Positions 29,504 through 44,655 are shown, numbered from the stretch's first letter. The stretch is 64,000 nt of DNA from Escherichia coli O127:H6 str. E2348/69 (GCF_000026545.1 NC_011601.1), one strand, 5' to 3'. A program made the numbers and translations. The notes: generated by a model not told the origin, from the letters alone.

Positions 29504-30463
29504 TTACCATACCACCAGCATTCGCTTTACACCCTCCCTCGCCTGTTTAAAACCCTCATCCTCAGGATTGATTTGCAATAACCAGTTTATTCTTCCCTGC
29601 AAAGCATAAAGATACGCCGTTGCCTGTGCATGAAGATCGCCAGAAGAATCAAGCTCACCACGACGACTAAGATGCGAAATGACGCCATATTTTTGGCACA
29701 AATGTACTTCCTGACGCAGTGCCCTCCGCACTTCGCGGGCGAGTTGTGGTTTGTGATTAACAACAATCCCGGTTACTTGCTGGCGCTTACAGGCCGCGAC
29801 CAGGCAGCTTTTGCGTTGATTGAGGTTCAGGCCCAGCTCCGCTAACAATCCGCACACTTTATTTTTAACCAGGCGGGCATTGAAGTGACCGGAAAAGGTC
29901 ATGTCATCGCAGTAGCGGGTGTAGGTAATTCCCCGAGCCTGACACCATTCCCCTATGCGCTCATCAAAACGGCACATCACAAGATTGGAAATGGCAGGCG
30001 AAGTTGGTGCCCCCTGCGGTAACGCGTCGTTATAGCAACAAAGCCAGGTCAGCATGCTTACCACATTGCGTGGCAACTGGGCCTGGCGAAACACACGCCA
30101 GACCTGTAACCAGCTAATGCTATCGAAAAAGTTTTCGATATCGAGTTTCAGGATCTGCGGCTGTTGGCAGTGAGGCTGCGCATTGCTGACGATTGGGCAA
30201 CCCGGCCGGTAGGCGGTAGCAAAAGGGGAAAGAGGGAATTGTGAAAGGACGTTCTTAAGAATGTTGCGCTGTACGGTTTTGAGCAAGTAATTAGGGGCTA
30301 ACACCACCCGCTGACCGCCGTGACGCTTAGAAAGAATAATCCGTCGGTAATGGCGTGCGGCATGATTACTGAGCGCATACAGCCGCTGTATTTCTTTATC
30401 GGCGCTCCAGCCCGGCGAGCCGAACAAATCAAGCGCCAGAAGGGTTATCCGGGTAGCATCCAT
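29504..30463 (-). CDS. Retron-type reverse transcriptase
   Basis: 319 aa from ATG (ORF track gives 323 aa from an upstream GTG); RT motifs YCDDMTFSG (YxDD) and QGAPTSPAISNL; retron-typical VTG motif (QVTGIVVN); between slmA and pyrE, where K-12 has only a short intergenic palindrome. Confidence 0.85.
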   Translation of the reverse strand: MDATRITLLALDLFGSPGWSADKEIQRLYALSNHAARHYRRIILSKRHGGQRVVLAPNYLLKTVQRNILKNVLSQFPLSPFATAYRPGCPIVSNAQPHCQQPQILKLDIENFFDSISWLQVWRVFRQAQLPRNVVSMLTWLCCYNDALPQGAPTSPAISNLVMCRFDERIGEWCQARGITYTRYCDDMTFSGHFNARLVKNKVCGLLAELGLNLNQRKSCLVAACKRQQVTGIVVNHKPQLAREVRRALRQEVHLCQKYGVISHLSRRGELDSSGDLHAQATAYLYALQGRINWLLQINPEDEGFKQAREGVKRMLVVW

Positions 30464-30759: not shown

Positions 30760-31401
30760 TTAAACGCCGAACTCTTCGCGATAGGCCTTAACCGCCGCCA
30801 GATGTTCCGCCATTTCCGGCTTCTCTTCAAGGTAAGCAATCAGGTCTTTCAGGGTGATGATAGAGATCACTTTGCAGTTGTAATCACGCTCAACTTCCTG
30901 AATCGCCGAAATCTCGCCGCGCCCGCGCTCCTGACGATCGAGCGAAATCAATACGCCAGCAAGCGTCGCGCCATTGGCCTGAATAATTTCCATCGACTCG
31001 CGAATCGCCGTTCCGGCGGTGATCACATCATCCACCAGCATTACGCGTCCTTGTAATGCGCTACCGACCAGATTGCCGCCTTCACCGTGATCTTTTGCTT
31101 CTTTGCGGTTAAAGCAGTACGGCAGGTCCAGGTCATGATGCTCCGCCAGCGCTACAGCGGTAGTAGTGGCAATTGGGATCCCTTTGTAAGCAGGGCCAAA
31201 CAGCAGATCGAACTCAATGCCGGAATCCACTAACGCTTCAGCGTAAAAACGGCCTAACAGTGCCAGATCGCGCCCGGTATTAAACAGCCCGGCGTTGAAG
31301 AAATAGGGGCTTTTGCGCCCGGACTTCAGCGTAAACTCGCCAAACTTTAACACCTGCTTGCTAAGCGCAAATTCAATAAACTGGCGCTGATATGGTTTCA
31401 T
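30760..31401 (-). CDS. pyrE: Orotate phosphoribosyltransferase
   Basis: ORF 30760..31416 trimmed to [11 protein letters not shown] (213 aa); PRPP-binding motif [13 protein letters not shown]. Confidence 0.95.
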
Positions 31402-31466
31402 GCCTTCGCTCCTCATCTTACTTTTCTACAGACAAAAAAAAGGCGACTCATCAGTCGCCTTAAAAA

Positions 31467-32183
31467 TCAGTTTGCCAGCGCCGCCTTCTGCGTCGCTACA
31501 ATGGATTCGATTCCCCCTCGGGCCAGCGCCAACAAGGTGAGTAGCTCTTCATGGGTAAACGGCTCGCCTTCTGCCGTTCCCTGAACTTCAATGATGCGCC
31601 CGTCTTCGGTCATCACCACGTTCATGTCCGTTTCAGCGGCAGAGTCTTCAACGTATTCCAGATCGCAAACCGCTTCGCCGTTCACAATACCAACAGAAAC
31701 CGCGGCTACCATCCCTTTCATCGGGTTGGTTTTCAGCTTGCCATTTTCAACCAGTTTATTCAGGGCATCGGCCAGTGCAACACAAGCACCGGTAATCGAA
31801 GCGGTACGCGTGCCACCATCAGCCTGAAGCACGTCGCAGTCCAGCGTAATGGTGAACTCACCCAGCGCTTTCAAATCTACTGCCGCGCGAAGAGCACGGG
31901 CGATCAGACGCTGGATTTCCATTGTGCGTCCCCCCTGCTTACCTTTCGCCGCTTCACGGGCATTACGGGTATGAGTAGAACGCGGCAGCATACCGTATTC
32001 TGCGGTGATCCAGCCCTGGCCCTGACCTTTCAGGAAGCGCGGCACGCCTTCTTCAATAGAGGCGGTACACAACACTTTGGTATCGCCAAATTCGACCAGC
32101 ACCGAGCCTTCTGCATGTTTTGTATAGTTACGAGTCAGGGTAACGGGACGCACCTGATTATTGCTACGGCCTGCTGGACGCAT
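31467..32183 (-). CDS. rph: Ribonuclease PH (full length)
   Basis: ORF 31467..32207 trimmed to [15 protein letters not shown] (238 aa); C-terminus intact. Confidence 0.95.
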
Positions 32184-32309
32184 ATTGAAATCTCCGGCTT
32201 GAAACAAATGTGGCTGCGCATTATACGGACTTCCGGCGGTTATTCCTATCCTGACAAGGCATCGATGGCTATAATCCTTCCACCTCTCCTTTTATAAACA
32301 GGAACGTCT

Positions 32310-33173
32310 ATGATCCGCAGTATGACCGCCTACGCCCGGCGTGAAATCAAGGGTGAATGGGGGAGCGCAACCTGGGAAATGCGCTCGGTAAACCAGCGTT
32401 ATCTGGAAACTTACTTTCGTCTGCCGGAGCAGTTCCGTAGCCTTGAACCTGTCGTTCGTGAGCGTATTCGTTCTCGCCTGACGCGCGGTAAAGTGGAATG
32501 TACCCTGCGCTATGAGCCCGATGTCAGCGCGCAAGGTGAGCTGATCCTCAACGAAAAACTGGCTAAACAGCTGGTAACTGCCGCGAACTGGGTAAAAATG
32601 CAGAGTGACGAAGGGGAAATCAACCCGGTTGATATTCTCCGCTGGCCAGGCGTGATGGCGGCCCAGGAACAGGATCTCGACGCGATTGCCGCTGAAATTC
32701 TCGCGGCGCTGGATGGTACGCTGGACGACTTTATCATCGCGCGCGAAACCGAAGGTCAGGCGCTGAAAGCATTGATCGAGCAGCGTCTGGAAGGCGTGAC
32801 CGCCGAAGTGGTCAAAGTCCGCGCCCACATGCCGGAAATCCTGCAATGGCAGCGTGAGCGTCTGGTGGCTAAGCTGGAAGACGCCCAGGTGCAACTGGAA
32901 AACAACCGTCTGGAGCAGGAGTTGGTTCTGCTGGCACAACGAATTGACGTTGCCGAAGAGTTGGACCGCCTCGAAGCGCATGTTAAAGAGACCTACAACA
33001 TTCTGAAGAAAAAAGAAGCCGTTGGTCGTCGTCTGGACTTTATGATGCAGGAGTTCAACCGCGAGTCGAACACCCTGGCCTCGAAGTCTATCAATGCCGA
33101 AGTGACTAACTCCGCCATTGAGCTGAAAGTGTTGATCGAGCAGATGCGCGAGCAGATTCAGAATATTGAATGA
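32310..33173 (+). CDS. yicC: YicC family stress-induced protein
   Basis: 287-aa ORF; synteny with rph. Confidence 0.9.
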   Translation: MIRSMTAYARREIKGEWGSATWEMRSVNQRYLETYFRLPEQFRSLEPVVRERIRSRLTRGKVECTLRYEPDVSAQGELILNEKLAKQLVTAANWVKMQSDEGEINPVDILRWPGVMAAQEQDLDAIAAEILAALDGTLDDFIIARETEGQALKALIEQRLEGVTAEVVKVRAHMPEILQWQRERLVAKLEDAQVQLENNRLEQELVLLAQRIDVAEELDRLEAHVKETYNILKKKEAVGRRLDFMMQEFNRESNTLASKSINAEVTNSAIELKVLIEQMREQIQNIE

Positions 33174-33212
33174 TTTTGCATGCTGTCGCATGAAATTGCA
33201 AAAATCCATCAT

Positions 33213-33237
33213 AGCCCGCATTTTGCGGGCTTTTTTA
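33213..33237 (+). terminator. Intrinsic terminator of yicC
   Basis: Hairpin AGCCCGC-ATTTT-GCGGGCT followed by a T-run, 40 nt past the yicC stop. Confidence 0.65.
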
Positions 33238-33281
33238 TTTTCATACTGTCGCATATGATTGCATAGCATCGCGCAAAACAT

Positions 33282-33300
33282 TTGTACCCAAGACTGTACC
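33282..33300. repeat. attL core (left copy of the 19-bp direct repeat)
   Basis: TTGTACCCAAGACTGTACC, identical to 44406..44424; 61 bp upstream of the integrase start. Confidence 0.75.
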
Positions 33301-33360
33301 TTTAATAATTTATCCAATTCATTTTGGGTACAAAATGATAGTCAATATTCAGGTGAAACT

Positions 33361-34620
33361 ATGGCAAAGCTGACAGATATCCAAATCAAGTCATGGATTA
33401 AGGCAGGAGAACGCTTCGAGGGGCGCTCTGACGGCAACGGGCTATACCTTCGCTATCGAGTGGGGGATAAAGTGCCTGTATGGCGTTTTCGATATCAGTT
33501 CGCTGGGAAATCACGGGTAATGCTTATTGGATCTTATAGCGAAATATCCCTTTCCAAAGCACGGGAAATAGCCAAGGAATTATCCGCACGTGTAGCCCTG
33601 GGCTTCGATGTCGCCGGGGAAAAGAAAGCGCGAAAAGCGGCTGCTATAGAAAAGATGGAGCGGGAGAAAAACGCGCTTCGCGTGTCAGAGCTAGCAACCG
33701 AGTATTTCGAACGGCAGATTTTGGGACGCTGGAAACATCCCGATCTTCTGCGCCGGAGAATCGATAAGGATATCAACCCACATATTGGCAACATGAAGAT
33801 AGAGGACGTAAAACCCCGTCATATTGATGCGATGCTACAGAGCGTTGTTGATCGTGGCGCTCCAACCGTAGCTAATGACGTTCTGCGCTGGACTAAACGC
33901 ATATTCGATTATGCTATCAAGCGTCATGCACTGGAATTAAACCCAGCTGGAGCATTTGATCTGTCAGACGCTGGCGGGCAGGAAAGTAGCCGTATGCGCT
34001 GGCTGACCCGTGAAGAACTTATACGTTTTTTCCAAGCTATGCGCACTGCAAAAGGATTCAGCCGCGAGAACGAGCTGACCATGAAGCTAATCCTCTGCCT
34101 GTGTTGTCGCAAAATGGAGCTGTGCGGTGCTCAGTGGGATGAATTCGACCTTGATGAAGCAGTGTGGCATCTACCAGCAGAACGCGTTAAAAACGGCGAC
34201 GCTATTGATATACCACTACCTCCACCTGCGGTTGGTTGGTTGAGAGAGCTTCGCACTATCGCGGGCAGTGGGAGTAAATGGGTTCTCCCCGCGCGGAAGA
34301 TGCAACACCGCATGATTCCCCACATTCAGGAAAGCACACTCCCAGTGGCGCTGGCAAAAGTACGCCGCGAAATGCCAGAAGTACCAAACTTCACAATTCA
34401 CGATTTCAGGCGTACCGCCCGCACCCATTTAGCGGCGTTGGGTGTCGATCCCGTAGTCGCAGAACGTTGCCTGAATCACCGCATTAAAGGCGTTGAGGGT
34501 ATCTACAACCGCCACCAGTACTTTGAAGAACGACGGGCAGCCCTGGAACTGTGGGCGGGGCTTCTGGTTTCGCTTGAACGAGGGGAAAACTACAATGTTA
34601 TTCCTTTATCTAAAATATAA
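33361..34620 (+). CDS. int: Tyrosine-type site-specific integrase (P4-like)
   Basis: ORF 33259..34620 trimmed to MAKLTDIQIKSW (419 aa); catalytic region HDFRRTARTHL and C-terminal Tyr region (GIYNRHQY). Confidence 0.9.
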   Translation: MAKLTDIQIKSWIKAGERFEGRSDGNGLYLRYRVGDKVPVWRFRYQFAGKSRVMLIGSYSEISLSKAREIAKELSARVALGFDVAGEKKARKAAAIEKMEREKNALRVSELATEYFERQILGRWKHPDLLRRRIDKDINPHIGNMKIEDVKPRHIDAMLQSVVDRGAPTVANDVLRWTKRIFDYAIKRHALELNPAGAFDLSDAGGQESSRMRWLTREELIRFFQAMRTAKGFSRENELTMKLILCLCCRKMELCGAQWDEFDLDEAVWHLPAERVKNGDAIDIPLPPPAVGWLRELRTIAGSGSKWVLPARKMQHRMIPHIQESTLPVALAKVRREMPEVPNFTIHDFRRTARTHLAALGVDPVVAERCLNHRIKGVEGIYNRHQYFEERRAALELWAGLLVSLERGENYNVIPLSKI

Positions 34621-34636
34621 AAGTTTTGTTTGAAGG

Positions 34637-34739
34637 TATTCACCCTATTCACCTTTTTAATTAACTTCATGATTTTAAATAATAAAAAAGGGTGAATACT
34701 TACAGTAAAACTAATCACCTTAGTATTCACCTGTTCACC
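34637..34739. repeat. Cluster of five TATTCACC/TGTTCACC 8-mers (putative recombinase arm-type or regulator sites)
   Basis: TATTCACC at 34637, 34646 and 34724; TGTTCACC at 34732; inverted copy GGTGAATA at 34691; directly downstream of int. Confidence 0.5.
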
Positions 34740-34817
34740 TTCTAAAGCTGCTGTGGCTGCTCCCCTTGCCCGAAAACACGCCAGCCACCAGCGTTAAAAA
34801 AAACTACAAAAATCATC

Positions 34818-34839
34818 ATCGTACAGATCTGTACGATGA
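34818..34839. promoter_or_regulatory. Perfect 22-bp palindrome, putative operator
   Basis: CATCGTACAGATCTGTACGATG in the non-coding region between int and the cargo operon. Confidence 0.4.
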
Positions 34840-35123
34840 CGCCAGCACTCACCCTACAAAACAACCTAACTTATTGATTTCAAAAGTAGAGAAAATCTGC
34901 TTTATGCCACTAGCTCGCACCCGTCCCCAAAAAGAAAAAGCCCGCGCTGGAGACGCACGGGCTTTTGGGTACCGATAACCATGTTTGGAATCAACTCATT
35001 GAGTTCTGACCTCAATTTGCATGTTATCACAAGAAAAACACATTGTAATAATTGCAACAACGAATATCATCATTGCATATAATGAAACATAAATATCCGA
35101 TAGAACATACTGAGGTCTGACCG

Positions 35124-35675
35124 ATGCAAGATATTACAAACATCGCAGTGACTGGCGAAGATGGCGTGGTGACGTATGCCGACGGCAGTAAAGAGGAGTT
35201 CCAGTGCAGCGGAACCGTTGCGACCATCATTGCAAGTCTTGCAACGACACTCGAGAAAGAACGCAAAATGCGCATCGCCACCGGCGACCGCCTGCGCCGC
35301 ATGTACACCCGCGACAGTGATATGATTTCCCGCGGTTTGAATGGCACGTCTGCTACTTCCACGGCACCGACAGCAATGAATGCTGAGTTCATGCGTCTGG
35401 TACGTGCCGTAGCGCCGAAATACGATTCAGCACTGCCCGACGCCGACCCGCGCATCGTTGCGCTCGATGTGCTGCGCTACGCCCCTGCTGAGGCGTTCAG
35501 CGCCGTACACCCTACCCCAATGTCAGAAATCCAGCTGGATCAGGCTATCGATATACTCGAGCAGGTTGGCGACTACATGAAAGCAAACAATATCGCTCCG
35601 AAAATAATTTCTACAGGAGACGCAATCCGCAGCATCAATGCTGACAACGCCACCTTCTGGGGCAAAAAACACTAA
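35124..35675 (+). CDS. Hypothetical protein (island cargo, operon gene 1)
   Basis: 183-aa ORF with no recognised domain; first of four co-directional, tightly spaced ORFs. Confidence 0.6.
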   Translation: MQDITNIAVTGEDGVVTYADGSKEEFQCSGTVATIIASLATTLEKERKMRIATGDRLRRMYTRDSDMISRGLNGTSATSTAPTAMNAEFMRLVRAVAPKYDSALPDADPRIVALDVLRYAPAEAFSAVHPTPMSEIQLDQAIDILEQVGDYMKANNIAPKIISTGDAIRSINADNATFWGKKH

Positions 35676-35688
35676 AGAGATATGAAGC

Positions 35689-35877
35689 ATGTCTATCTAT
35701 GACCCGAAATTAGCCGCAGGCAACCCACAGCGCGCCCACCGCCCAATGCTGACCCGTCAGGATCTTGAAACGGCAAAGGCACGCAATAACTTCGATCGCC
35801 AGAGTCGCAACCTGCAGCAACTCAACGAATCAAATGCACGGTTCTGGAGTGAACAGAATGAGAAAGCCAAACGTTAA
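35689..35877 (+). CDS. Hypothetical small protein (operon gene 2)
   Basis: 62-aa ORF 14 bp after gene 1. Confidence 0.45.
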   Translation: MSIYDPKLAAGNPQRAHRPMLTRQDLETAKARNNFDRQSRNLQQLNESNARFWSEQNEKAKR

Positions 35878-36034
35878 GCCGGTCCTGCTGTCCGCCGAGC
35901 AGATGCAGGCCATACGCAACATTCAGGAACGTGAACGCCAGCGCTCCAATCTCGGCGTCGCTCCCACCGTTCACCAGATTGCCCGCGGCCTCATGGCTAA
36001 GGCTCTGGCCTCACTGGCAAGCGAGGGCGCGTAA
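35858..36034 (+). CDS. Hypothetical small protein (operon gene 3; start uncertain)
   Basis: ORF track gives 35765..36034; trimmed to ATG 35858, which has GGAG 9 nt upstream; stop overlaps the next start (TAATG). Confidence 0.35.
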   Translation: MRKPNVKPVLLSAEQMQAIRNIQERERQRSNLGVAPTVHQIARGLMAKALASLASEGA

Positions 36035-36765
36035 TGGGCGCCATTCACCAGATATATGAGCAGGAAATGTTCTATAACTGGATAGGCGATGGTAAACGAT
36101 GTGTAGCATTCCACGAAGCGGGCCATGCAGTAGCCGCATGGCTTATTCGCTTAGATATGCAGGTTATCGCCATTATGGATGAATCCGGCTACGTTGCTGG
36201 CGAACATGTACATGAAGCCCAGTGTTTGGGCGTTGTTAAACACGGCATAATCCACAGCCACGATCTCAGGCGTTTGCGGGAGAGTAAATCTGGTGTAGTT
36301 GGGCACGATGGCAAAGTTATCCCTTTCATACGCTACTACGCGGAAGGTATAAAGCGCGATGCAACAAAGGCCGCTTTTGTAGCCCTCGCTGGACCAGTAA
36401 GCGAAGCCATTTACGAAAATAACGAAATTTTCAATATAAAGTATTCACTCCCTCACCGCTATGACATGGCTAACGTAAATGACATGCTCGATTTAATATG
36501 TGCCACGGATAAGCGAATTAACAGGAAGTTAATGCTTTCTAAACTTGTTGAAAAGACCAAATTCCTCATGACTCAATACTGGCCGGAAGTAGGAAAAATA
36601 GCGCATTTGCTTGAGCGGGATAACATTGTTAATGGCCGCGATGTTAGCTCGCTAATCGGCCTCAACGTCATTGACCGGGCAACGCCATTTTTGGTATCTG
36701 ACTTGAGCAGTACATTTGCTCATCTCCCGTACTCGTCCCTGCCTCCGAATGAATTAGCAACTTGA
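36034..36765 (+). CDS. FtsH-like (M41-type) zinc metallopeptidase-domain protein lacking ATPase and membrane modules
   Basis: 243 aa; HEAGH zinc-binding motif (AFHEAGHAVAAW) and downstream LAGPVSEAIY segment resembling the FtsH protease domain; no Walker motifs. Confidence 0.65.
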   Translation: MGAIHQIYEQEMFYNWIGDGKRCVAFHEAGHAVAAWLIRLDMQVIAIMDESGYVAGEHVHEAQCLGVVKHGIIHSHDLRRLRESKSGVVGHDGKVIPFIRYYAEGIKRDATKAAFVALAGPVSEAIYENNEIFNIKYSLPHRYDMANVNDMLDLICATDKRINRKLMLSKLVEKTKFLMTQYWPEVGKIAHLLERDNIVNGRDVSSLIGLNVIDRATPFLVSDLSSTFAHLPYSSLPPNELAT

Positions 36766-36776
36766 AGACAGTAAAG

Positions 36777-36803
36777 TAGCCATGCATTTAACACGCATGG
36801 CTA
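36777..36803. terminator. Hairpin between convergent cargo operons (putative bidirectional terminator)
   Basis: 9-bp perfect stem TAGCCATGC / GCATGGCTA with a 9-nt loop, between the stops at 36765 (+) and 36813 (-). Confidence 0.45.
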
Positions 36804-36812
36804 TGTGAACAT

Positions 36813-38036
36813 TTAAGAATTAGAGCGCTTAGGCGATCGCGTAAATTGCACTAAAGCCCCTTTATGATCGTTAGCCTGCACATCACGATGCTCAACCAAC
36901 ATAGATTTTAATTTTGCCAGATGCACAACAGCAGCCTTCTTGCCAGTCAGGTACCCCTCGGGCAAACCAGCAATCATTTCCACATCAATAGCAGATAAAC
37001 CTGCGAATGCAGCAAGCCGTTCAACTGAAATGATTCCAGACGATGCCAGCAATTCAATAGTACGTTTCAACAAACGTGGTTTTTCAGGCTCACGATAATC
37101 ATCTCCCGGCTCTGATTTCGCTCCCCAACGTGCTGAACGACGCTTATAAAGATTTTGTTTCTCTTCTTCCGTAATAATATGCAGCACATGTAAACGCATG
37201 ATACTTGCCGCAACGGAAATACCATAGCGTTGTTTAATTAAAAGCAAGCTATCTAATGTTACCGGGGTCCTAATTTCTTCGGCAAATGTCTCAGCAGGAA
37301 GCAGCAGTGCTCCCGCAAATTTATGAGCCTGACTTTCCTTCAGCTTATAACGTTCGGCTTCGAGTTCGTTGCCAACATAGCGGTGAAGGATCAGATGACC
37401 AATTTCGTGAGCAAGGTCAAATCTGCTACGAAAAGCATTACCTTTATCTGAAGAGAGGAGAACAAAAGGAACACCTAAAGTCTCACTCCAGGCAGAAAGC
37501 CCTTCAATCTGCGCAACGCCTGTTTCTTCTCTAATAACGATAATACCATTACTCTCTGCGGCTAAAGCAAGATCCGGTATTTCCTTTGTACCAAGATTCC
37601 AAAGAGCACGGCACTCATTAGCAGCGTCTTCAATATCTGCATCACTAATTTCATCAATGTTTGTAAAGCTACGACGCGGTAGTTTTAGCTCCGGCAGATC
37701 TACAAACTCAGTCAGCTTAGTAACTAACTCATTAGCCCAATGGATTCGAGTTTCTAACATTGCTCGTGCAGCTACATGAGCTGATGCATTGCTTCTGAAC
37801 AGAGGCTTTGACATCCCCTTCAACAGAGGGCGCGTAAACCATTCAGGTGTAACATTTACGACAGTGGCCAGACGTTCTAAAGCCTCAGACTCTGGAGCCT
37901 GTTGACCGGAACGCCATTTGCTAATGGTTGCTGGTGATACACCCACCATAGTAGCTAATTGAGTTTGTGATAGCCGCCGGGCGGCTAGTACCTGTGCTAA
38001 CCTGCCCGGTTGAAATTCGGCGACGCCTCGGCTCAT
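36813..38036 (-). CDS. Fused HTH-XRE / ImmA-IrrE-type (M78-like) zinc metallopeptidase protein
   Basis: 407 aa; N-terminal XRE helix-turn-helix (LSQTQLATMVGVSPATISKWRSG); central HExxH motif (LAHEIGHLILH); start overlaps the upstream gene stop by 4 bp. Confidence 0.8.
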   Translation of the reverse strand: MSRGVAEFQPGRLAQVLAARRLSQTQLATMVGVSPATISKWRSGQQAPESEALERLATVVNVTPEWFTRPLLKGMSKPLFRSNASAHVAARAMLETRIHWANELVTKLTEFVDLPELKLPRRSFTNIDEISDADIEDAANECRALWNLGTKEIPDLALAAESNGIIVIREETGVAQIEGLSAWSETLGVPFVLLSSDKGNAFRSRFDLAHEIGHLILHRYVGNELEAERYKLKESQAHKFAGALLLPAETFAEEIRTPVTLDSLLLIKQRYGISVAASIMRLHVLHIITEEEKQNLYKRRSARWGAKSEPGDDYREPEKPRLLKRTIELLASSGIISVERLAAFAGLSAIDVEMIAGLPEGYLTGKKAAVVHLAKLKSMLVEHRDVQANDHKGALVQFTRSPKRSNS

Positions 38037-38680
38037 ACATTATCTTCCTCGGTTCCATCTTTTCTGATAATGCCCCTTTTGAGCCCAGGGAATGCATTAT
38101 CTTCTTGGGACGGAACTACATCATATCGGGTTAAAAAAAGTTCAAGTGGCTCATGAAAAACCCAGCGCTTCCCATCAGAACTTGGTACAACAAGCTCTAT
38201 AGACATCGGAGCTTCAGGCTGAATCTGCAACGAACCGGAAAAACGGCATACTACGAACAGTGTAGCTTTTGGCACATCAGAACCATCGGAGAATAAATCC
38301 GGTTGCACCATTTTTTCCACAAACACGTTCTCAGAAATGAGTTCTTGCTTACGTTTGCTACGGAATAATCTCTTCCACTGGTTATCATTGTAGCTTTCAC
38401 GAACAATCGTGAATATACCACTATGGCCTTCTACAATACGGTTACCACGCAGCTTTCCAGGATTACAACCGTTGGCCTCAAACACCTCATAAATAGTTTC
38501 ATTCAGGTTTAAATGACGATCATAACCAAGCGCGGTCGATCTGTGATCTAGCTTCTTCTTTTGAGCATAATCGTAAGAACGCTTTGATGCCGCGTAAATC
38601 GCGTCAGAAAGGGCCATGAAGAGTTGTTTTGAAACATTCTGAACGATGAGATCTGCCACTTTGGATTTTTTCACGACCAT
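38033..38680 (-). CDS. Hypothetical protein, co-operonic with the HTH-peptidase gene
   Basis: 215-aa ORF; AGGAA just upstream of the ATG; no recognised domain. Confidence 0.65.
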   Translation of the reverse strand: MVVKKSKVADLIVQNVSKQLFMALSDAIYAASKRSYDYAQKKKLDHRSTALGYDRHLNLNETIYEVFEANGCNPGKLRGNRIVEGHSGIFTIVRESYNDNQWKRLFRSKRKQELISENVFVEKMVQPDLFSDGSDVPKATLFVVCRFSGSLQIQPEAPMSIELVVPSSDGKRWVFHEPLELFLTRYDVVPSQEDNAFPGLKRGIIRKDGTEEDNV

Positions 38681-39209
38681 TTCCTATCACTGTCACTGAT
38701 AGCCGTGATTTTATATCAGTATTTTTTCGTGTGTCCATAACGCAATCAATTATTTTTTCCTTTGTCAGCAAGAATTATATAAAAAGCACTATCATGACAG
38801 GATTTGGGCCACTAACCTTTCACAGACTCTTGAAGTCCTAGAAAAAAGCAATGGCACAAGGTGTCCTTGCCGGGAGAAAAATCATCTGGCTACCAGCAAC
38901 CTTATAGATTCCAGATCAACGTAATATCAAAGTAAAACGTCCATTTCCGGTACCATATTTGGTCATTACGACGGGGGAAACTTATACCCACTGCTGCCCC
39001 ATCGTCAGCGCCGACAGGGACCTATGCCGCAAGGTATAAGGCAAAATTGGCATTTTCGCTATTCCCCCTGCCCGTATTTTTTGGCTTACTGGAATTTCTC
39101 TATCTAACACAATGAACTTGAGGCTATTCCGACAGGGAGAAAAGCGATCTACGCCTGACCGCCTGCCTCAGCAATCATCCAGGCAAGTACGTGTGTAAGG
39201 CTAACGCGA

Positions 39210-39890
39210 ATGAGTGATTTTTATTCCCCTCTACCAAGCTATGATCTTGTCCGGGCAGCGGAGATGCTGACTGATAAGGGGGCAAATTGTACCGGTAACG
39301 ATTTATTGGAACTATGGAACCAAGGCGTTATCGAGTTGTGTTTTTCTCTGCCGGACTACATTGCTTGTGAAGATGTTAATTTTCCCGGGCATGGTCACAG
39401 CATTTTGTTATCCGTGGATCCGATTAGCTTCAACCTTTTCTGGCTAAATGTTGATTACCCACCGAACTTAAATGCTAACTTTTCTGTGAAAGAATATGGC
39501 TCAGATAGTGAATTCCATGAGCAGTCCCTATGGATACCAACAGAACCGCACTACAACACTCACCATGATAACGGGGAAGGGCTTTGCGAAGCGTTAAGGA
39601 ATACTTATGGCCGGGAAAATTTACGAATACCAGGTGTCGAATTGCAAAAGGTTTGGCGCTTTTTGATCGGTCAGCCTTATGAAAAAAAGCCAACGCCTGA
39701 GCGTATCACCGCTAAGCAATGCCGCTTTATCGTCGCATTACTCAGATCGTATAACCTGACTGACGATGATTTTAAGGGGAGCATTAGGGACCTGAGAATT
39801 AAGATATCTAACCGGATCCCTTCAATCGGTGATCCTGAAATCGATGATAATACCCTTACTGACTGGCTGAAGAAGGGAGGGGTTCGGTAG
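39210..39890 (+). CDS. Hypothetical protein (island cargo, orphan)
   Basis: 226-aa ORF with no recognised domain; divergent from the 38680 operon. Confidence 0.6.
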   Translation: MSDFYSPLPSYDLVRAAEMLTDKGANCTGNDLLELWNQGVIELCFSLPDYIACEDVNFPGHGHSILLSVDPISFNLFWLNVDYPPNLNANFSVKEYGSDSEFHEQSLWIPTEPHYNTHHDNGEGLCEALRNTYGRENLRIPGVELQKVWRFLIGQPYEKKPTPERITAKQCRFIVALLRSYNLTDDDFKGSIRDLRIKISNRIPSIGDPEIDDNTLTDWLKKGGVR

Positions 39891-39992
39891 CTGAGTTTTC
39901 ATAACTCCGATGAGTTTTCAATAACTCCCCCACCCGTAACCACCTACCCCGTAGCCTTGCGATTACCTTCTCACTCAATAGCAGGTAATCGC

Positions 39993-40205
39993 ATGAAATC
40001 GCAAACTTTCACCTTTCCTACCAATGGCAACGCACGAGCCAAACAAGTGGCGCACTATCTTGGAGTGCATATCAGCACCGTATGGCGCTATGCAAAACGT
40101 CCTGATTTTCCAAAACCCCACCAGTTAACCGACGGCGTGACCGTCTTTGACGCCGCAGCTATTCGCCAATGGAACAAGCAAAAAACCGGGGGTGAGAATG
40201 CTTAA
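39993..40205 (+). CDS. alpA: AlpA-family phage transcriptional regulator / excisionase-like protein
   Basis: ORF 39957..40205 trimmed to MKSQTFTF (70 aa); HTH segment AKQVAHYLGVHISTVWRYAKRPDFPKP typical of AlpA/Vis. Confidence 0.7.
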   Translation: MKSQTFTFPTNGNARAKQVAHYLGVHISTVWRYAKRPDFPKPHQLTDGVTVFDAAAIRQWNKQKTGGENA

Positions 40206-40259
40206 CGCGACCGTGAGCACACCCTGCACGACAGCCGTTCGATCTCCATTGTTGGCGGG

Positions 40260-40454
40260 TCAGGCTTTCGGCTCAATACCCAGCCGCTGGAGTTCTTTGC
40301 GCCCCAAGGTTTTCATCCAATTAGCTAAACTCATACCTGCATCTCGTGCGGCGGCCTCGAATTGCTCTTTCAATTCTGGGGCGATCCTCACTTGGAAAGC
40401 TGGTGCCTTTCCCCTGCCTTTGGGCTGTTTATCACGCTGTATTACTGTTGACAT
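40260..40454 (-). CDS. Putative ribbon-helix-helix DNA-binding protein
   Basis: ORF 40260..40547 trimmed to MSTVIQRD (64 aa); beta-strand plus two-helix pattern (FQVRIAPELKEQFEAAARDAGMSLANWM). Confidence 0.45.
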   Translation of the reverse strand: MSTVIQRDKQPKGRGKAPAFQVRIAPELKEQFEAAARDAGMSLANWMKTLGRKELQRLGIEPKA

Positions 40455-40588
40455 GTATGTACCTATTAAACTAAGATTCAAATCAATAGGTACGCACCTT
40501 AACATGTTAAGGTCAGAAAAGACAACGCCCCGTAGTGCTCGCAACACATACGGGGCGTCTAACCAACAACGTTACGGAGACTAACGCT

Positions 40589-40789
40589 ATGGCTAAGCCG
40601 CAGTGTACCCAAACTCACCCCAAATATCAGTATCGTTTTATGGCGCTCGATCGCGCTGACCGCCAGGCAAAACCCTGCAAAATCATTGTTGAGGCCACCA
40701 GCGAGCATGAAGCACGTAAGGTGTTGGCACCTCACTACATCCTGTCACTGTCCGCCGTTTTGCCAGTTCAGGAGGTGAGCCATGTTTAA
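40589..40789 (+). CDS. Hypothetical protein (replication-module operon)
   Basis: ORF 40535..40789 trimmed to ATG 40589, which follows GGAGA; 66 aa. Confidence 0.4.
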   Translation: MAKPQCTQTHPKYQYRFMALDRADRQAKPCKIIVEATSEHEARKVLAPHYILSLSAVLPVQEVSHV

Positions 40790-40976
40790 TGTCATTGTCA
40801 CGGTCACCTATCACTTTTCGGGAACGATCCGTCGTTTTGCTATTCCGGAACGTTTCAATAATCGTGAGCTCGCAGAGAAAGCGGCGCAGCAGTTAACCCA
40901 TACCAGCTATCTGGATGATGGAGTGAGCAGAATTGTGACCCACGCGGCGGAAGTAGTGGAGGTGCGCCATGTATGA
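40782..40976 (+). CDS. Hypothetical protein (replication-module operon)
   Basis: 64-aa ORF whose start overlaps the upstream stop. Confidence 0.4.
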   Translation: MFNVIVTVTYHFSGTIRRFAIPERFNNRELAEKAAQQLTHTSYLDDGVSRIVTHAAEVVEVRHV

Positions 40977-41157
40977 CGCCTACCTGAACCCAAAGGACGC
41001 ACTCCGTCCGATCGCCGTTGCACTCGAGGCTGCGCAGTTTATCGCGCTTGACCCGGAGAATACCGATTTAGCCCATGAGCTGATCGCCTGGGCACTTGAA
41101 ACAGCCGCGCGTGCCTCAGCTGCGCAACGTAACACCCCGGAGGTGGACAATGCTTAA
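40969..41157 (+). CDS. Hypothetical protein (replication-module operon)
   Basis: 62-aa ORF whose start overlaps the upstream stop. Confidence 0.4.
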   Translation: MYDAYLNPKDALRPIAVALEAAQFIALDPENTDLAHELIAWALETAARASAAQRNTPEVDNA

Positions 41158-41458
41158 TCTCAATACATGGAATCTTTTCACGCTGCCGCTGAACGGTGGC
41201 GCAGCTGAGACAGCGCCGGACGATCTGCGTCTGCTGGCCGCTGTGGGGGACGAGGCTCGCAACAACTACCTGCGCGGTGTAAGCGCCATCGGCAATCTGA
41301 TCTTCTGGGCATGTGATAACCCCAACTACACCGACCATCAAGCTGACCTGCCAGCGCTGGGCGCATTCCTGAAACATACCGCTGATATGGCGCGCGCTGC
41401 CGAATTCATGGCAGGACATCTGGACTCACTGGCTGACGGCAAAGAGGGAGGCAAATAA
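41150..41458 (+). CDS. Hypothetical protein (replication-module operon)
   Basis: ORF 41096..41458 trimmed to ATG 41150, which follows GGAGGTGG; 102 aa. Confidence 0.45.
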   Translation: MLNLNTWNLFTLPLNGGAAETAPDDLRLLAAVGDEARNNYLRGVSAIGNLIFWACDNPNYTDHQADLPALGAFLKHTADMARAAEFMAGHLDSLADGKEGGK

Positions 41459-41679
41459 TGCCACGCAAACATCGCTCATCAAGCAACCTGATCAAATTAA
41501 TGGAACGCCAGAAAGGTATAGGGCGCGACGATATCCAGATCGCAGATAATCGCCCTACATTCATGCCGTACGAGCCGAACGGAACCTACGCTACAAACCG
41601 CCATACCCGCCGTATGCTACGCAAGCTCCACGGCATCCAGGCAAAAAGAATGTGTGATCTGAAAGGAGGTCAGAAATGA
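41458..41679 (+). CDS. Hypothetical protein (replication-module operon)
   Basis: 73-aa ORF; stop overlaps the primase start. Confidence 0.45.
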   Translation: MPRKHRSSSNLIKLMERQKGIGRDDIQIADNRPTFMPYEPNGTYATNRHTRRMLRKLHGIQAKRMCDLKGGQK

Positions 41680-44090
41680 GTGGATTCGATCACCTGATGG
41701 AGCAGGGGCAGAAACGCACCCCTGCTCGTTTTACTGCAAATAGCTTTTCTGACCTGTGCAACGCTATTCTATCGCATCGTGTGCAAATTTCCATCACACA
41801 GGAAATGACGGATGAAGAACGGCGCAAAGAAAAGCAGAAACTGTACTGGTTCTCGGCAACTACCCAGCAGGACGGGCAGCGACGTAAACCCGAAAACATG
41901 GCACCGTGTGCTTTCGGTATGCTGGACATTGACGGCAGCACTCCCGGTGCAATCACAGCACTTGTACAGGTGTTCCGGCGATACTCAATGCTGGTGTACC
42001 AGACGGCCAGCTATACGACGGATGAACCTCGTCTGCGTATTGTGTGCGAGCTTTCCCGAGCGGTTGAATCTGACTACCGCCGAGCGACAGGCGAATCCAT
42101 AGAAACTTTGTTGATGCAGGAGGCTGGATTCTCATTCGCCAGCCTGGCGGATAAGAAAGCACGCTGGGAGAACGGCAGCGATTATGTTGTCTTTGACCGC
42201 AATGTATACGGCGCTCAAAGCTATTGCTACTGTCCACACACTGGAGCGAAAGCCCAGAATTACGCGGGCGCGGTAATCGACGTAGGGGCGTTACCGGAAC
42301 CCGCCCAGCCACCAGCGAAGGCGGCCAAAAGCAAGGCAAAGAAACAGCGCCAGCGTGACGCCGCGGCGGTAATAGATGCTGATTTTGACGATCTGAGCGC
42401 CGGACCGGATAACTTCCTTATCGCCGACCTGCGCAGCGCACTCTGGTTTCCCTCCATGCTGCAAAAGGCATGGGACAATGGGGCGTGGATTGAGCAGGGC
42501 TACCGCCTTGCATCTCTCAAAGGCACCGATTTTGAGGACGACGCGCGGCAACTGTGGGTCGAGTGGTCATTGACCGCAGCGGATGGCTGGCCTGATGAAG
42601 AACTTGATGAAGTCGCGGCACAACGCTGGAATGGTCTCGCCCCTGACAAAACCAGCTATAAAGCTATTTTTACTGATGCTCAGGCGCAGGGGTGGAATAA
42701 TCCGGGCAAATGGCGAGCAAAGGCCGCGTACATTGAGAAAATGGCCCCCAGCACACGCGGTGAACTGCTGGCGCAATATTACGGCAACGTATGCCTGAAA
42801 GCTGATGGCAACATGGTTTATCACTATACCGGGCAGGTGTGGGAGCACATCGCCGATGCCGAGTTGCGCCGCCAGCTTTCGCAGATTTTCAAAGATAACG
42901 GGGTCCCCTTTACACCGTACGAGGTTAAAAGCGCGATTGAGGCTATGGGAATGCTTCTGCCTTTAATGGGAGAAACTCCTCGTAACCTGATTGGCTTTGC
43001 CAACGGCGTTTATGATCTCGAGGCGCAGCGATTCCGCCCCCACTGCCCAGACGATTGGCTGACCAGCCATAACGGCGTTGAATACACGCAGCCGGTTAAA
43101 GGCGAAACCCTGAAAAACAATGCCCCAAACTTCTGGCGCTGGCTGCATCATTCCGCAGGGGGCGACTTCGACAAAATGGAGAGAATCAAAGCCGCTCTGT
43201 ATATGGTGCTGGCAAACCGCTACGACTGGCAACTGTTCATCGAGGTTACCGGTGCTGGTGGCAGTGGTAAAAGCGTGTTCACGGGTATTGCACGTATGCT
43301 GACGGGCGAACTACACGCCACCAGCGGCACAATGGAGGACATGGACACCGCGCGCGAACGCGCATCTTTTGTCGGCAAAAGCCTGATCACCCTACCCGAC
43401 CAAGCAACATATACGGGTTCCGGGCCGGGTATCAAGGCTATAACGGGCGGCGACGTGGTAAGGATCGACCCAAAGCACGAAAAGCCATTCCATACGGTTA
43501 TTCGCGCCGTTGTCATCGCAACAAACAACGAACCTATGCGTTTCACCGAACGACAAGGCGGGATATCGCGGCGCCGGGTTATTTTCCCGTTTAACCATGA
43601 AGTGCCGGAGGCGGAACGTGATCCCCATCTGCTCGATAAAATTAAAGCCGAACTGCCGGTAATCGTCCGTGGTCTGCTGATTGACTTCGAACAGCCAGGC
43701 AAAGCCAAATCGCTACTTATCGCGCAGCGTGATTCAGCGGAAGCGCTGCAGGTGAAGAACGATAACGACCCGATGTATGGCTTTTGCTCTTACCTGCTAG
43801 GTTTGCCGAATCCCGAGGGCATGTACATGGGCGATGGGCGCATGGCGCGAGAGCCACGCATCTACCTCTATCATGCTTATCTGGCCTATCTGGAAGCCTA
43901 CGGTTATCAGAGAACCCCCACCCTACCGAAGTTCAGCGGAGATTTACGGGACACGCTCAAAGCCTTTGGTATTACTCTGGACAGTAAAAAGAGTAAAAAG
44001 GGCAAAAGATATAACGTCAATTTGTCTGACAGGGCACAAGAATGGCTGGGAGAAGACGAACTCTCAGCTGTGCCCGACACATTGCAGTAA
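41676..44090 (+). CDS. P4 alpha-like primase-helicase
   Basis: 804 aa; Walker A GAGGSGKS in the C-terminal half (SF3/D5-type helicase); last gene of a translationally coupled operon. Confidence 0.85.
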   Translation: MSGFDHLMEQGQKRTPARFTANSFSDLCNAILSHRVQISITQEMTDEERRKEKQKLYWFSATTQQDGQRRKPENMAPCAFGMLDIDGSTPGAITALVQVFRRYSMLVYQTASYTTDEPRLRIVCELSRAVESDYRRATGESIETLLMQEAGFSFASLADKKARWENGSDYVVFDRNVYGAQSYCYCPHTGAKAQNYAGAVIDVGALPEPAQPPAKAAKSKAKKQRQRDAAAVIDADFDDLSAGPDNFLIADLRSALWFPSMLQKAWDNGAWIEQGYRLASLKGTDFEDDARQLWVEWSLTAADGWPDEELDEVAAQRWNGLAPDKTSYKAIFTDAQAQGWNNPGKWRAKAAYIEKMAPSTRGELLAQYYGNVCLKADGNMVYHYTGQVWEHIADAELRRQLSQIFKDNGVPFTPYEVKSAIEAMGMLLPLMGETPRNLIGFANGVYDLEAQRFRPHCPDDWLTSHNGVEYTQPVKGETLKNNAPNFWRWLHHSAGGDFDKMERIKAALYMVLANRYDWQLFIEVTGAGGSGKSVFTGIARMLTGELHATSGTMEDMDTARERASFVGKSLITLPDQATYTGSGPGIKAITGGDVVRIDPKHEKPFHTVIRAVVIATNNEPMRFTERQGGISRRRVIFPFNHEVPEAERDPHLLDKIKAELPVIVRGLLIDFEQPGKAKSLLIAQRDSAEALQVKNDNDPMYGFCSYLLGLPNPEGMYMGDGRMAREPRIYLYHAYLAYLEAYGYQRTPTLPKFSGDLRDTLKAFGITLDSKKSKKGKRYNVNLSDRAQEWLGEDELSAVPDTLQ

Positions 44091-44108
44091 CTTGTAAAAA
44101 ATCACCAA

Positions 44109-44133
44109 GAACCCCGTAAATCGGGGTTTTTGT
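44109..44133 (+). terminator. Intrinsic terminator after the primase gene
   Basis: Hairpin ACCCCG-TAAAT-CGGGGT followed by TTTTT, 20 nt past the stop. Confidence 0.6.
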
Positions 44134-44150
44134 CTATTTATTAGTCTGAA

Positions 44151-44255
44151 AGGGTGAACAGGTGCGCATACCTTAACAAAGCTGTTCACTCTAATAATTT
44201 TCTTTAATATCAGTACACTACCCGCAATAAGTGAACAGATGGACGGGGTGAACAC
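44151..44255. repeat. Cluster of GTGAACA motifs near the right island end
   Basis: GGTGAACA at 44153 and 44248, GTGAACAG at 44231, inverted copy TGTTCAC at 44183; related to the left-end TGTTCACC/TATTCACC cluster. Confidence 0.45.
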
Positions 44256-44405
44256 TTCACACCTATAGCGCGAAATATTTTAATATTTGCAGTTGAATTG
44301 CAATCCTTGAAAACAGAAACGCGTAGCAAAACGTAGAGTGCTGAAAAAATTTTGTTGGGGAGCAGTTCAAACTGCATGAGCAATTTTCAAGCACTCCTCT
44401 TTGTC

Positions 44406-44424
44406 TTGTACCCAAGACTGTACC
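44406..44424. repeat. attR core (right copy of the 19-bp direct repeat)
   Basis: TTGTACCCAAGACTGTACC, identical to 33282..33300. Confidence 0.75.
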
Positions 44425-44655
44425 CAATAGAAAAAATAGAAAATAAAAACTCAGCAATAGCAGCGATTGGTTACACTACTCAACATTCAGATTCAACTCG
44501 TAACGCCAATTCTTACTTTTCAGCCTTCACAAATGCCGCCCACTCAAACAGAGCGGCATTTTTCTTCCCCGCAACTTCAATTCTGTTTTGCGTGCCTGCT
44601 CCAGATTTTGCGATGTTTTTTTGCCCAGCGCAGTGAGAACGTGAGATACTCACAA

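Follow-up and report, generated by a model that had tools for sequence, protein, structure and literature searches.

In Gram-negative bacteria, phage-inducible chromosomal islands (PICIs) have been found at the 3′ end of yicC, where the site, its core, and the family of islands occupying it have already been described. In particular, the att core of the reference PICI EcCIRM13514, from Escherichia coli O145:H28 RM13514, was reported at 'yicC-dinD' as GAGCAGATTCAA (Fillol-Salom et al., 2018; PMC6092414, Table S1), and Mageeney et al. remarked on damage done by PICIs, but not by prophages, to the displaced fragment of the target and on 'drift' of attB seen among the yicC PICIs. In helper-embedded PICIs (HE-PICIs), a doubled motif with a 12-bp period is located on both sides of the crossover, 81 bp upstream and 132 bp downstream; binding by the integrase through its arm domains was suggested by the authors, and the motif was reported as unique to HE-PICIs (Mageeney et al., 2023; PMC10111431). 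Here, we analyzed a 64,000-nt stretch (hereafter, the window) of the chromosome of enteropathogenic E. coli (EPEC) O127:H6 strain E2348/69, which it matches at 100% identity over the region, using for comparison 5,426 complete E. coli genomes, including K-12 and ∼4,900 others with an empty site. Between yicC and dinD, the window contains an island that quite probably is an integrated mobile element of the PICI/P4 satellite superfamily, inserted at the yicC 3′ end, and the perfect 19-bp direct repeat near its ends most likely represents attP arm sites rather than the crossover.

The Island Is Inserted at the 3′ End of yicC

Alignment with K-12 and the ∼4,900 other empty-site genomes delimits the inserted DNA to positions 33161–44495 (11,335 bp). 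In K-12, the yicC stop codon is joined at once to CTCGTAACGCC, so that the dinD upstream region directly follows it, whereas in the window CTCGTAACGCC begins at 44496, not at 44425. The first-pass annotation of this DNA had placed an 11.1-kb island in a non-tRNA site between yicC and dinD, with boundaries set by the 19-bp repeat (33282–44424) and with integration into an intergenic attB. It was right about the insertion, the site, and the direct succession of yicC and dinD in K-12, but not about the extent: the DNA missing from K-12 exceeds the repeat-bounded segment by 121 bp on the left and by 71 bp on the right, and K-12 contains neither the 19-mer nor the DNA outside it, which comprises 108 bp from yicC to the left copy and 72 bp on the 3′ side of the right copy. 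Both junctions share an 8-bp identity block, CAGATTCA, at 33153–33160 (attL core) and 44488–44495 (attR core), both on the + strand, which is contained within the published EcCIRM13514 core GAGCAGATTCAA. The left copy lies inside the codons Gln-Ile-Gln, among the last of yicC. The alignment with empty yicC-dinD sites, which the annotation had itself proposed as a check, thus puts attB at CAGATTCA and not in intergenic DNA. Because the junctions lie at CAGATTCA in the last yicC codons and the density of single-nucleotide polymorphisms (SNPs) changes exactly there, the island has as its target the coding 3′ end of yicC, and rebuilds it.

The same arrangement, with CAGATTCA at both junctions, was found in all four island types examined at yicC, that is, in the window and in E. 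coli JNEC-KY203 (L009), E. coli CV839-06 (L010), and RM13514 (EcCIRM13514, L011). On the left, yicC runs to ...GAG CAGATTCA and is followed by island-specific last codons with a stop, the island's own terminator hairpin, a tandem motif, and int; on the right, the island's own P-arm sequence is followed by CAGATTCA and then by K-12-type DNA. In the window, the replacement for the last yicC codons (Asn-Ile-Glu) and the stop is supplied by positions 33161–33173 (+), which, relative to GAACATCGAATAA in K-12, contain synonymous changes and have TGA as the stop, in a version specific to each island type. An island-supplied intrinsic yicC terminator was located by the terminator scan at 33213–33240 (+), and every island type has a hairpin of its own at this position. 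Replacement of the last codons together with provision of a terminator is the usual behavior of integrases that target the 3′ ends of genes. After the attR core, the window continues with K-12-type sequence, the displaced yicC 3′ fragment being nearly all deleted; at the same place, L009 and L011 still have ACATCGAATAA after the right-hand CAGATTCA, as the displaced copy of the original yicC 3′ end. This variable shortening of the displaced fragment fits the remark of Mageeney et al. on target damage by PICIs.

Comparison with two other carriers of the window's island type (L004 and L005) locates the change in divergence at the same point. The left 1.5-kb flank is 96.1–96.3% identical to those of the two carriers, with the last dense flank SNP at 33137, and the sequence just inside the core is 99.6–99.7% identical; on the right, the island end is 99.0–99.5% identical and the flank 91%. 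The shift in SNP density among the island-bearing strains thus falls at the yicC core CAGATTCA, not at the 19-bp repeat. Together, the K-12 alignment, the layout common to the four island types, and this divergence break define the mobile unit as 33161–44495 and the identity block as CAGATTCA.

Two observations concern the right-hand flank. The dinD region is unusually divergent between carriers (91% identity), and the dinD gene, intact in E2348/69 and truncated in L010, has a pseudogene annotation (internal stop or frameshift) in L004, L005, and L011. RefSeq annotates an 86-aa hypothetical protein at 44376–44636 (+), which spans the P-arm motif and the attR core, extends into the dinD upstream region, and has no family match; it is probably a spurious call.

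The 19-bp Repeat and the Geometry of the att Arms

The perfect 19-bp direct repeat that the first-pass annotation had found flanking the island genes is real: TTGTACCCAAGACTGTACC occurs exactly at 33282–33300 and 44406–44424 and, even with two mismatches allowed, nowhere else in the window, and it was obtained in none of the shuffled sequences. The 19-mer consists of a doubled motif, TGTAC-N7-TGTAC, with a period of 12, in the form of TGTACCCAAGAC followed by TGTACC, and this tandem pattern is found in the window only at those two places. The right copy extends into a perfect second TGTACCCAA, yielding a P-arm element at 44406–44427 (+) that contains TGTACCCAA twice with a period of 12 and starts at −84.5 bp from the core center; the left copy (33282–33300, +), on the P′ arm, starts at +126.5 bp. 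Between the latter and the int start codon, an inverted half-site, TTGGGTACAA, can be read in the sequence at 33325–33334 (−); its GTACA is located at +171.5 bp, just before the int start, and, across the island types, the corresponding half-site is found either at +171.5 or at +172.5 bp.

These distances are conserved. In L009, L010, and L011, the doubled TGTAC motif is found at −85.5 bp and at +126.5 or +127.5 bp from the core center, so that the offsets agree within 1 bp across the four island types, with no relationship among the sequences that separate the motif from the core; the half-site itself is TGTACA in these three islands and TGTACC in the island of the window. In the annotated attP of phage P4, tandem arm repeats of 12 bp begin at −86.5 and +122.5 bp from the core center, and an inverted copy, located between +161.5 and +172.5 bp, overlaps the int start. 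Because the offsets are fixed in four island types, the geometry is that of P4 and HE-PICIs, and the integrase carries an Arm-DNA-bind_3 domain, the 19-bp direct repeat is, by analogy with these systems, most likely a pair of attP arm-type integrase-binding sites parted by integration, and not the crossover.

The arm-binding integrase would, according to this scheme, recombine the attP crossover CAGATTCA with the same sequence in the yicC codons Gln-Ile-Gln. In such an attP, each of the two arms, P and P′, would have one copy of the putative doubled arm-type Int-binding motif, and a further half-site, in inverted orientation, would precede int, in a layout resembling that of P4 attP, and the P′ arm would keep yicC intact by supplying the Asn-Ile-Glu-stop codons and the terminator. 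The predicted attP reads ...ACTCAACATT-CAGATTCA-GAATATTGAATGATTTTGC..., and the predicted restored site is yicC...GAGCAGATTCA-ACTCGTAACGCC. Excision and induction would be driven by AlpA, and the primase-helicase would bind TGTTCAC(C) iterons located just 3′ of its own gene through its P4-type origin-binding domain.

In the window, directly after the doubled motif of the P arm, an A-rich tandem AATAGAAAA AATAGAAAA is found at 44426–44443, which could be a bending or accessory-factor site. Separately, several of the 'att site cores' listed in PMC6092414 (Table S1) are themselves tandem doubled motifs, for example, TTTGTAGTTATACGTTTGTAGTTATACGG, CGGTGTAGTTAATGGTGTAGTTAATT, and TTTGGTAACACGTTTAGTAACAC, and look like arm-type rather than crossover sites; at least 15 of the reference PICIs were later reassigned to tRNA genes in a preprint by Mageeney and colleagues. 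Where a direct repeat is perfect and close to the ends of an island, it can be an integrase arm-site pair and not the crossover site, a trap that seems to affect several published PICI 'att cores' as well.

Integrase, Regulatory Genes, and Replication Module

The succession of int, cargo genes, alpA, a translationally coupled operon of small open reading frames (ORFs), and a primase-helicase between the two repeats, as first annotated, agrees with the Pfam and PHROGs assignments, and all genes between the 19-mer copies are annotated as intact in RefSeq. The first gene, at 33361–34620 (+), encodes a tyrosine integrase of 419 aa with an arm-binding N-terminal domain (PHROG 1, 3.7e-66; Pfam Arm-DNA-bind_3, Phage_int_M, and Phage_integrase). 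It is 78–82% identical at the amino acid level to the integrases of the other yicC islands (L009, L010, and L011), with 78% identity to that of EcCIRM13514, and 26% identical to P4 Int. The window's island type is carried by 17 of the 5,426 complete genomes, and a related integrase is encoded directly after yicC in 522 of them. The right-hand modules differ among islands at this same site: that of L009 contains, at 31155–31350, two tRNA genes plus genes for PerC and Mor, and that of L010, at 30874–36042, encodes P22-like ejection proteins and DUF2824, like the EcCIMP1-type elements mobilized by phage Kapi1.

An int-alpA RNA motif (Rfam RF02996) is located at 39117–39184 (+) and scores 39.4 bits, against a gathering score of 35.8. 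Because this RNA adjoins the int stop codon in relatives, starting 7–9 nt after it in L009 and L010 (60–62 bits), whereas it lies 4.5 kb from int in the window, the cargo was inserted between int and the RNA, displacing it here and in L004. Between the RNA and alpA is a variable orphan ORF of 226 aa (39210–39890, +) without domains or a family match in PHROGs, PADLOC, or NCBIfam; it is represented by only 12 clusters in 5.8 billion proteins and is replaced by unrelated ORFs in L004 and other islands. The alpA gene (39993–40205, +) encodes a helix-turn-helix (HTH) protein of the excisionase/transcriptional activator family (Pfam Phage_AlpA, 6.9e-7; PHROG 66, excisionase and transcriptional regulator). 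It is followed by a gene for a 64-aa ribbon-helix-helix (RHH) protein (40260–40454, −), divergent from the replication operon and matching the Arc-like repressors of PHROG 228 (1.2e-5); its weak similarity to TraJ and MobA (E of 7e-5 and 2e-3, respectively) is far below both curated cut-offs. A promoter-like site for the rightward operon, at 40448–40477 (+), overlaps the 5′ end of the RHH gene, and the two together are a candidate repressor switch, judging from their arrangement. The RHH gene occupies the position where P4, L009, and L010 carry the C4 and isrK immunity RNAs, neither of which was detected in the island by Rfam searches at E up to 1. Weak Rfam matches to the Trp and Leu leaders, the first of which is the yicC terminator, were below the gathering scores and were dismissed.

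The rightward operon begins with an Icd-like protein (40589–40789, +; NCBIfam phage_ICD_like, 5.3e-18), which is related to the C terminus of the P4 eta/'cI ORF' (45% identity). Four small overlapping ORFs (64, 62, 102, and 73 aa; 40782–41679, +) take the position of P4 epsilon/orf151/orf106; they have no NCBIfam family and no similarity to P4 epsilon, and their single PHROG match is that of the 102-aa ORF to PHROG 6805, of unknown function. The six ORFs of 40589–44090 overlap by 1–8 nt, consistent with translational coupling. The last of them encodes a primase-helicase of 804 aa (41676–44090, +; Pfam D5_N, DUF5906, and Pox_D5) with P4 alpha-like helicase and origin-binding domains: residues 314–791 are 44% identical to P4 alpha 294–768, the helicase part is 48% identical to the EcCIRM13514 primase, and the P4 origin-binding domain (PDB 1KA8) aligns with residues 696–791 (6.4e-16). 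Homology to P4 alpha does not extend to the N-terminal 310 aa, and residues 14–351 are 32% identical to P3 of phage APSE.

A terminator of the replication operon (44106–44132, +; terminator scan) is followed by a candidate replication origin at 44152–44254, which consists of four GTGAACA/TGTTCAC(C) iterons arranged as two pairs around an AT-rich stretch. TGTTCACC is the annotated 'ori type 1 repeat' octamer of P4, and the position of the candidate origin is that of P4 crr and of the origins of PICIs, which are defined by sets of iterons located downstream of pri on either side of an AT-rich region. After the origin comes the P arm alone, with no late or accessory zone; relatives encode there SSB, ProQ/FinO, PerC, Mor, ejection proteins, or a full capsid module. 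Overall, by gene content, the backbone combines parts of PICI type and P4 type and has more in common with Gram-negative PICIs than with P4 proper.

The Cargo Slot

The slot between int and the int-alpA RNA spans 4.5 kb and includes genes on the minus strand. Two of these, rmrA and rmrT, overlap by 4 nt and together are assigned by homology to the anti-phage system RosmerTA. The antitoxin RmrA (36813–38036, −; 407 aa) combines an HTH_XRE domain with an M78/ImmA-IrrE peptidase domain (Pfam HTH_3 and Peptidase_M78) and matches the PADLOC RmrA profile over its full length (3.5e-125); the toxin RmrT (38033–38680, −; 215 aa) matches positions 4–220 of the 221 in the PADLOC RmrT profile (8.1e-16). 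As in the RosmerTA model of PADLOC-DB v2, the two genes form an adjacent overlapping rmrT-rmrA pair, with a full-length RmrA carrying the XRE HTH and M78 domains; the match of RmrT, by contrast, is only moderate (8e-16). In the same slot, L004 and L005 have a different Rosmer-like pair (27% identity) and one extra gene, and a metagenomic copy of the island has yet another content, a variation that is the pattern of a defense hotspot.

The slot also holds a four-gene operon at 35124–36765 (+), encoding proteins of 183, 62, 58, and 243 aa. The last of these contains the motif HEAGH (FtsH-type) in an M41-like peptidase domain, with a weak match to Pfam Peptidase_M41 (1.5e-3) and a match to AFG3L2 in the PDB (3e-4). 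The first three belong to no PHROG, PADLOC, or NCBIfam family, and PADLOC has no model for the operon. For the 183-aa protein, no sequence match to RppC or anything else was found in the PDB; its AlphaFold model was poor (pLDDT 66, pTM 0.41), and the Foldseek search of the PDB with this model, which gave nothing below E = 0.5, is uninformative. The operon is conserved in the window's island type. Because its proteins recur at 90–100% identity in int-alpA-primase-PerC elements at tRNA-Gly, which have a PICI architecture and carry the operon in their 3′ accessory zone, we regard it as a mobile module. The gene content of the slot suggests that the main present role of the island for the host is probably anti-phage defense; RosmerTA and the uncharacterized peptidase operon are hereby placed in a defined slot and can be tested for phage defense.

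Another defense locus, of the retron Ec107 type, lies ∼3 kb from the island. A gene for a 319-aa reverse transcriptase (29504–30463, −), between slmA and pyrE, matches PADLOC RT_Ec107-like (6.2e-131) and is present at the same place in L010; no Rfam msr/msd match was obtained at the gathering threshold. Retron Ec107 was described at the pyrE-ttk(slmA) intergenic site.

Mobility and Alternative Explanations

The backbones are nearly identical (∼99%) in chromosomes whose flanks differ by 4–9%, and the divergence breaks at the core, which argues for recent independent site-specific acquisitions; the element, therefore, would be, or recently have been, mobile. The means of any transfer are not apparent from the gene content. 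As stated in the first-pass annotation, Psu, Delta, and Sid are absent: neither these proteins nor Epsilon were detected among the ORFs with the PHROGs hidden Markov models, and six-frame tblastn searches with the P4 proteins gave E > 0.3 for all four (1.2 or higher for Epsilon). No island ORF matches a structural or lysis PHROG. No match to the 19-nt end of the P2/P4 cos was found within five mismatches, nor any blastn match to the P4 cos region; lambda cosN-like sites with one or two mismatches were found inside coding sequence and were taken as chance. The region between the origin and att has no similarity to any phage record, and in a search of the whole island against 50,697 phage records, the only DNA match was to the P4 alpha gene.

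Several of our observations weigh against an active satellite with the boundaries given above. Because the identity block is only 8 bp long and the yicC fragment displaced to attR has lost between 2 and 12 bp, depending on the island, the exact crossover point cannot be fixed from the sequence. The layout is not purely unidirectional, unlike that of classical Gram-negative PICIs: the backbone genes are on the + strand except for the RHH gene, which, like rmrA and rmrT, is on the − strand. Satellite behavior is not proven, because no Rpp, TerS, capsid, or cos function was found and the similarity to phage DNA is confined to the alpha gene. Neither an attP junction nor a copy of the island was found in IMG/VR, nor an excised form in metagenome contigs, and binding of Int to the doubled motif, excision, replication, and transfer rest on analogy. 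Absence of known modules is, however, not proof of immobility, given that EcCIMP1, a 'Type C' element without recognizable packaging genes, was experimentally shown to be mobilized by a helper phage. Transfer of the island, if phage-mediated, would proceed without a recognizable packaging, capsid, or cos function of its own. One tentative possibility, which we consider rather unlikely, is that the island is a functional 'minimal' satellite that uses its conserved small-ORF operon and is induced, replicated, and transferred by a helper phage without any recognizable capsid, terminase, or cos function, or else that the four-gene M41-like operon, which moves between a position next to int in the window and the 3′ accessory zone in PICI-type elements at tRNA-Gly, is a new anti-phage or helper-interference module.

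Alternatively, the island could be a stranded remnant, that is, a former PICI that lost its late/packaging zone and became a fixed defense island spread only by homologous recombination of its flanks. The gap between origin and P arm, empty where relatives carry genes for SSB, ProQ/FinO, PerC, capsid, or ejection proteins, would fit such a history, as would the lack of a detected cos, Rpp, or TerS, the rarity of the type (17 of 5,426 genomes), and the failure to see an excised form. We nevertheless judge it distinctly unlikely: no backbone gene is disrupted, identity among these genes is about 99% where the flanks differ by 4–9%, both att arms and the origin are intact, exchange in the cargo slot is ongoing, and a change of divergence at the att core is the mark of independent site-specific integrations, not of flank recombination.

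Much less probable still is the reading in which an intergenic attB of 19 bp was used for integration and the two 19-mers represent attL and attR, so that the island would be exactly 33282–44424. A perfect repeat found nowhere else in the window, with all island genes between its copies, does have the appearance expected under this reading, direct repeats at island ends being the usual signature of site-specific integration, yet present evidence already contradicts it. In addition to K-12, the other empty sites lack the 19-mer and the outer 108 and 72 bp. A chimeric 199-bp query joining these 108 bp, the 19-mer, and the 72 bp into an uninterrupted 'empty attB' matched 17 of the 5,426 E. coli genomes, all split by the island, and no uninterrupted copy. 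Among 100,044 species-representative genomes of GTDB, the exact 19-mer had only three matches, in unrelated taxa (Nostoc, Rhizobium, and an acidobacterial metagenome-assembled genome), which were taken as chance; nine matches in metagenome contigs comprised eight chance matches and one integrated E. coli copy with other cargo, with no empty site; and the 19-mer was not found in IMG/VR. In none of the collections searched, then, is the 19-mer part of an empty site, and the sequences external to the repeat are invariably associated with the island. Furthermore, these outer stretches co-vary with the integrase type, the SNP density shifts at the yicC core, which lies outside the repeat, and the distance from motif to CAGATTCA is fixed in the four island types. 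The assignment of the repeat as the att site in the first-pass annotation is thus not sustained.

Finally, an integrative mobilizable element moved by conjugation, and not a phage satellite, is the least probable alternative: although the Vibrio elements MGIVchMoz6, MGIVchUSA1, MGIVflInd1, and MGIVmi1 integrate at the yicC 3′ end and the 64-aa RHH protein is weakly similar, below the curated cut-offs, to the oriT-binding TraJ and MobA, no relaxase or mobilization protein was found among the ORFs with PHROGs, NCBIfam, or Pfam, RHH proteins are also common repressors (as in the Arc-like PHROG), and the integrase, alpA, the Icd-like gene, and the primase group with those of PICIs and P4.

Classification and Comparison with Known Systems

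The P4-like model of SatelliteFinder comprises int, psu, delta, sid, alpA, epsilon, and alpha, at least five of which are required (PMC10085698). Because only three of the seven components (int, alpA, and alpha) are present, psu, delta, sid, and epsilon being absent, and cos and the CI RNA are lacking as well, the gene content indicates that the island is not a P4-like satellite in the strict sense. The features by which Gram-negative PICIs are recognized (Fillol-Salom et al., 2018) include a dedicated att site that prophages do not use, rightward transcription throughout, and induction with high-frequency transfer by a helper phage. Of the features on this list, the island has the yicC site, int at the left end, alpA, pri followed by a candidate origin, and the size (about 8–15 kb), without structural or lysis genes, and its att site and core are the same as those of EcCIRM13514, with int likewise the first gene. 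The packaging and interference module of PICIs (Rpp, TerS, capsid morphogenesis, and cos) is not represented, there being nothing between the origin and attR. By gene content, three of the five PICI core components of SatelliteFinder are present, which corresponds to 'Type C', an ambiguous PICI class with more than 6,000 reported members. Thus, of the original description as a reduced satellite or integrative mobilizable element with a P4-like backbone that mainly carries cargo, the relationship to P4 and the predominance of cargo stand; the mobilizable element does not, no relaxase having been found, and the backbone is nearer to PICIs. None of this overturns current views. The map of the island is corrected in a prototype EPEC strain with respect to its true ends, target, and att architecture, and the doubled-arm-motif geometry is extended from P4 and HE-PICIs to the yicC integrase clade.

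Compared with P4, the island resembles it in the arm-binding integrase, the attP geometry, the alpha-type helicase with its origin-binding domain (44%; 1KA8), the Icd/eta-like ORF, the TGTTCACC-type iterons between alpha and att at the crr position, and a defense cargo slot adjoining int. It differs in lacking psu, delta, sid, epsilon, a P2-type cos, the CI (C4) RNA, and seqA (isrK), in an integrase that is only 26% identical, in the unrelated N-terminal domain of the primase, and in its target, a protein-coding gene and not a tRNA gene.

The closest relatives are the yicC PICIs, such as EcCIRM13514 (PMC6092414, Table S1) and CfCIP10159, which share with the island the target, the core CAGATTCA inside GAGCAGATTCAA, the att architecture, and a yicC terminator of their own. 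With EcCIRM13514, the similarity extends to int at the left end, alpA, the Icd-like gene, the primase followed by the origin, a size of about 11–12 kb, and the absence of structural and lysis genes; EcCIRM13514 differs in carrying SSB, ProQ/FinO, and PerC after the origin, a zone that the island of the window does not have. Unlike other yicC PICIs, the island lacks Bro/Ant/Rha genes, has the half-site TGTACC in place of TGTACA, and carries 4.5 kb of cargo and a longer primase with a different N-terminal domain; compared with L009 and L010, it has the RHH gene in place of the C4/isrK RNAs.

With HE-PICIs (PMC10111431), the island shares a co-oriented tandem motif of 12-bp period present once on each side of the crossover (−81/+132 bp there; −84.5/+126.5 bp here). 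The motif itself differs, being TGTATTGC in HE-PICIs and TGTAC(C/A) in the yicC clade, which thus holds an analogous doubled motif of its own.

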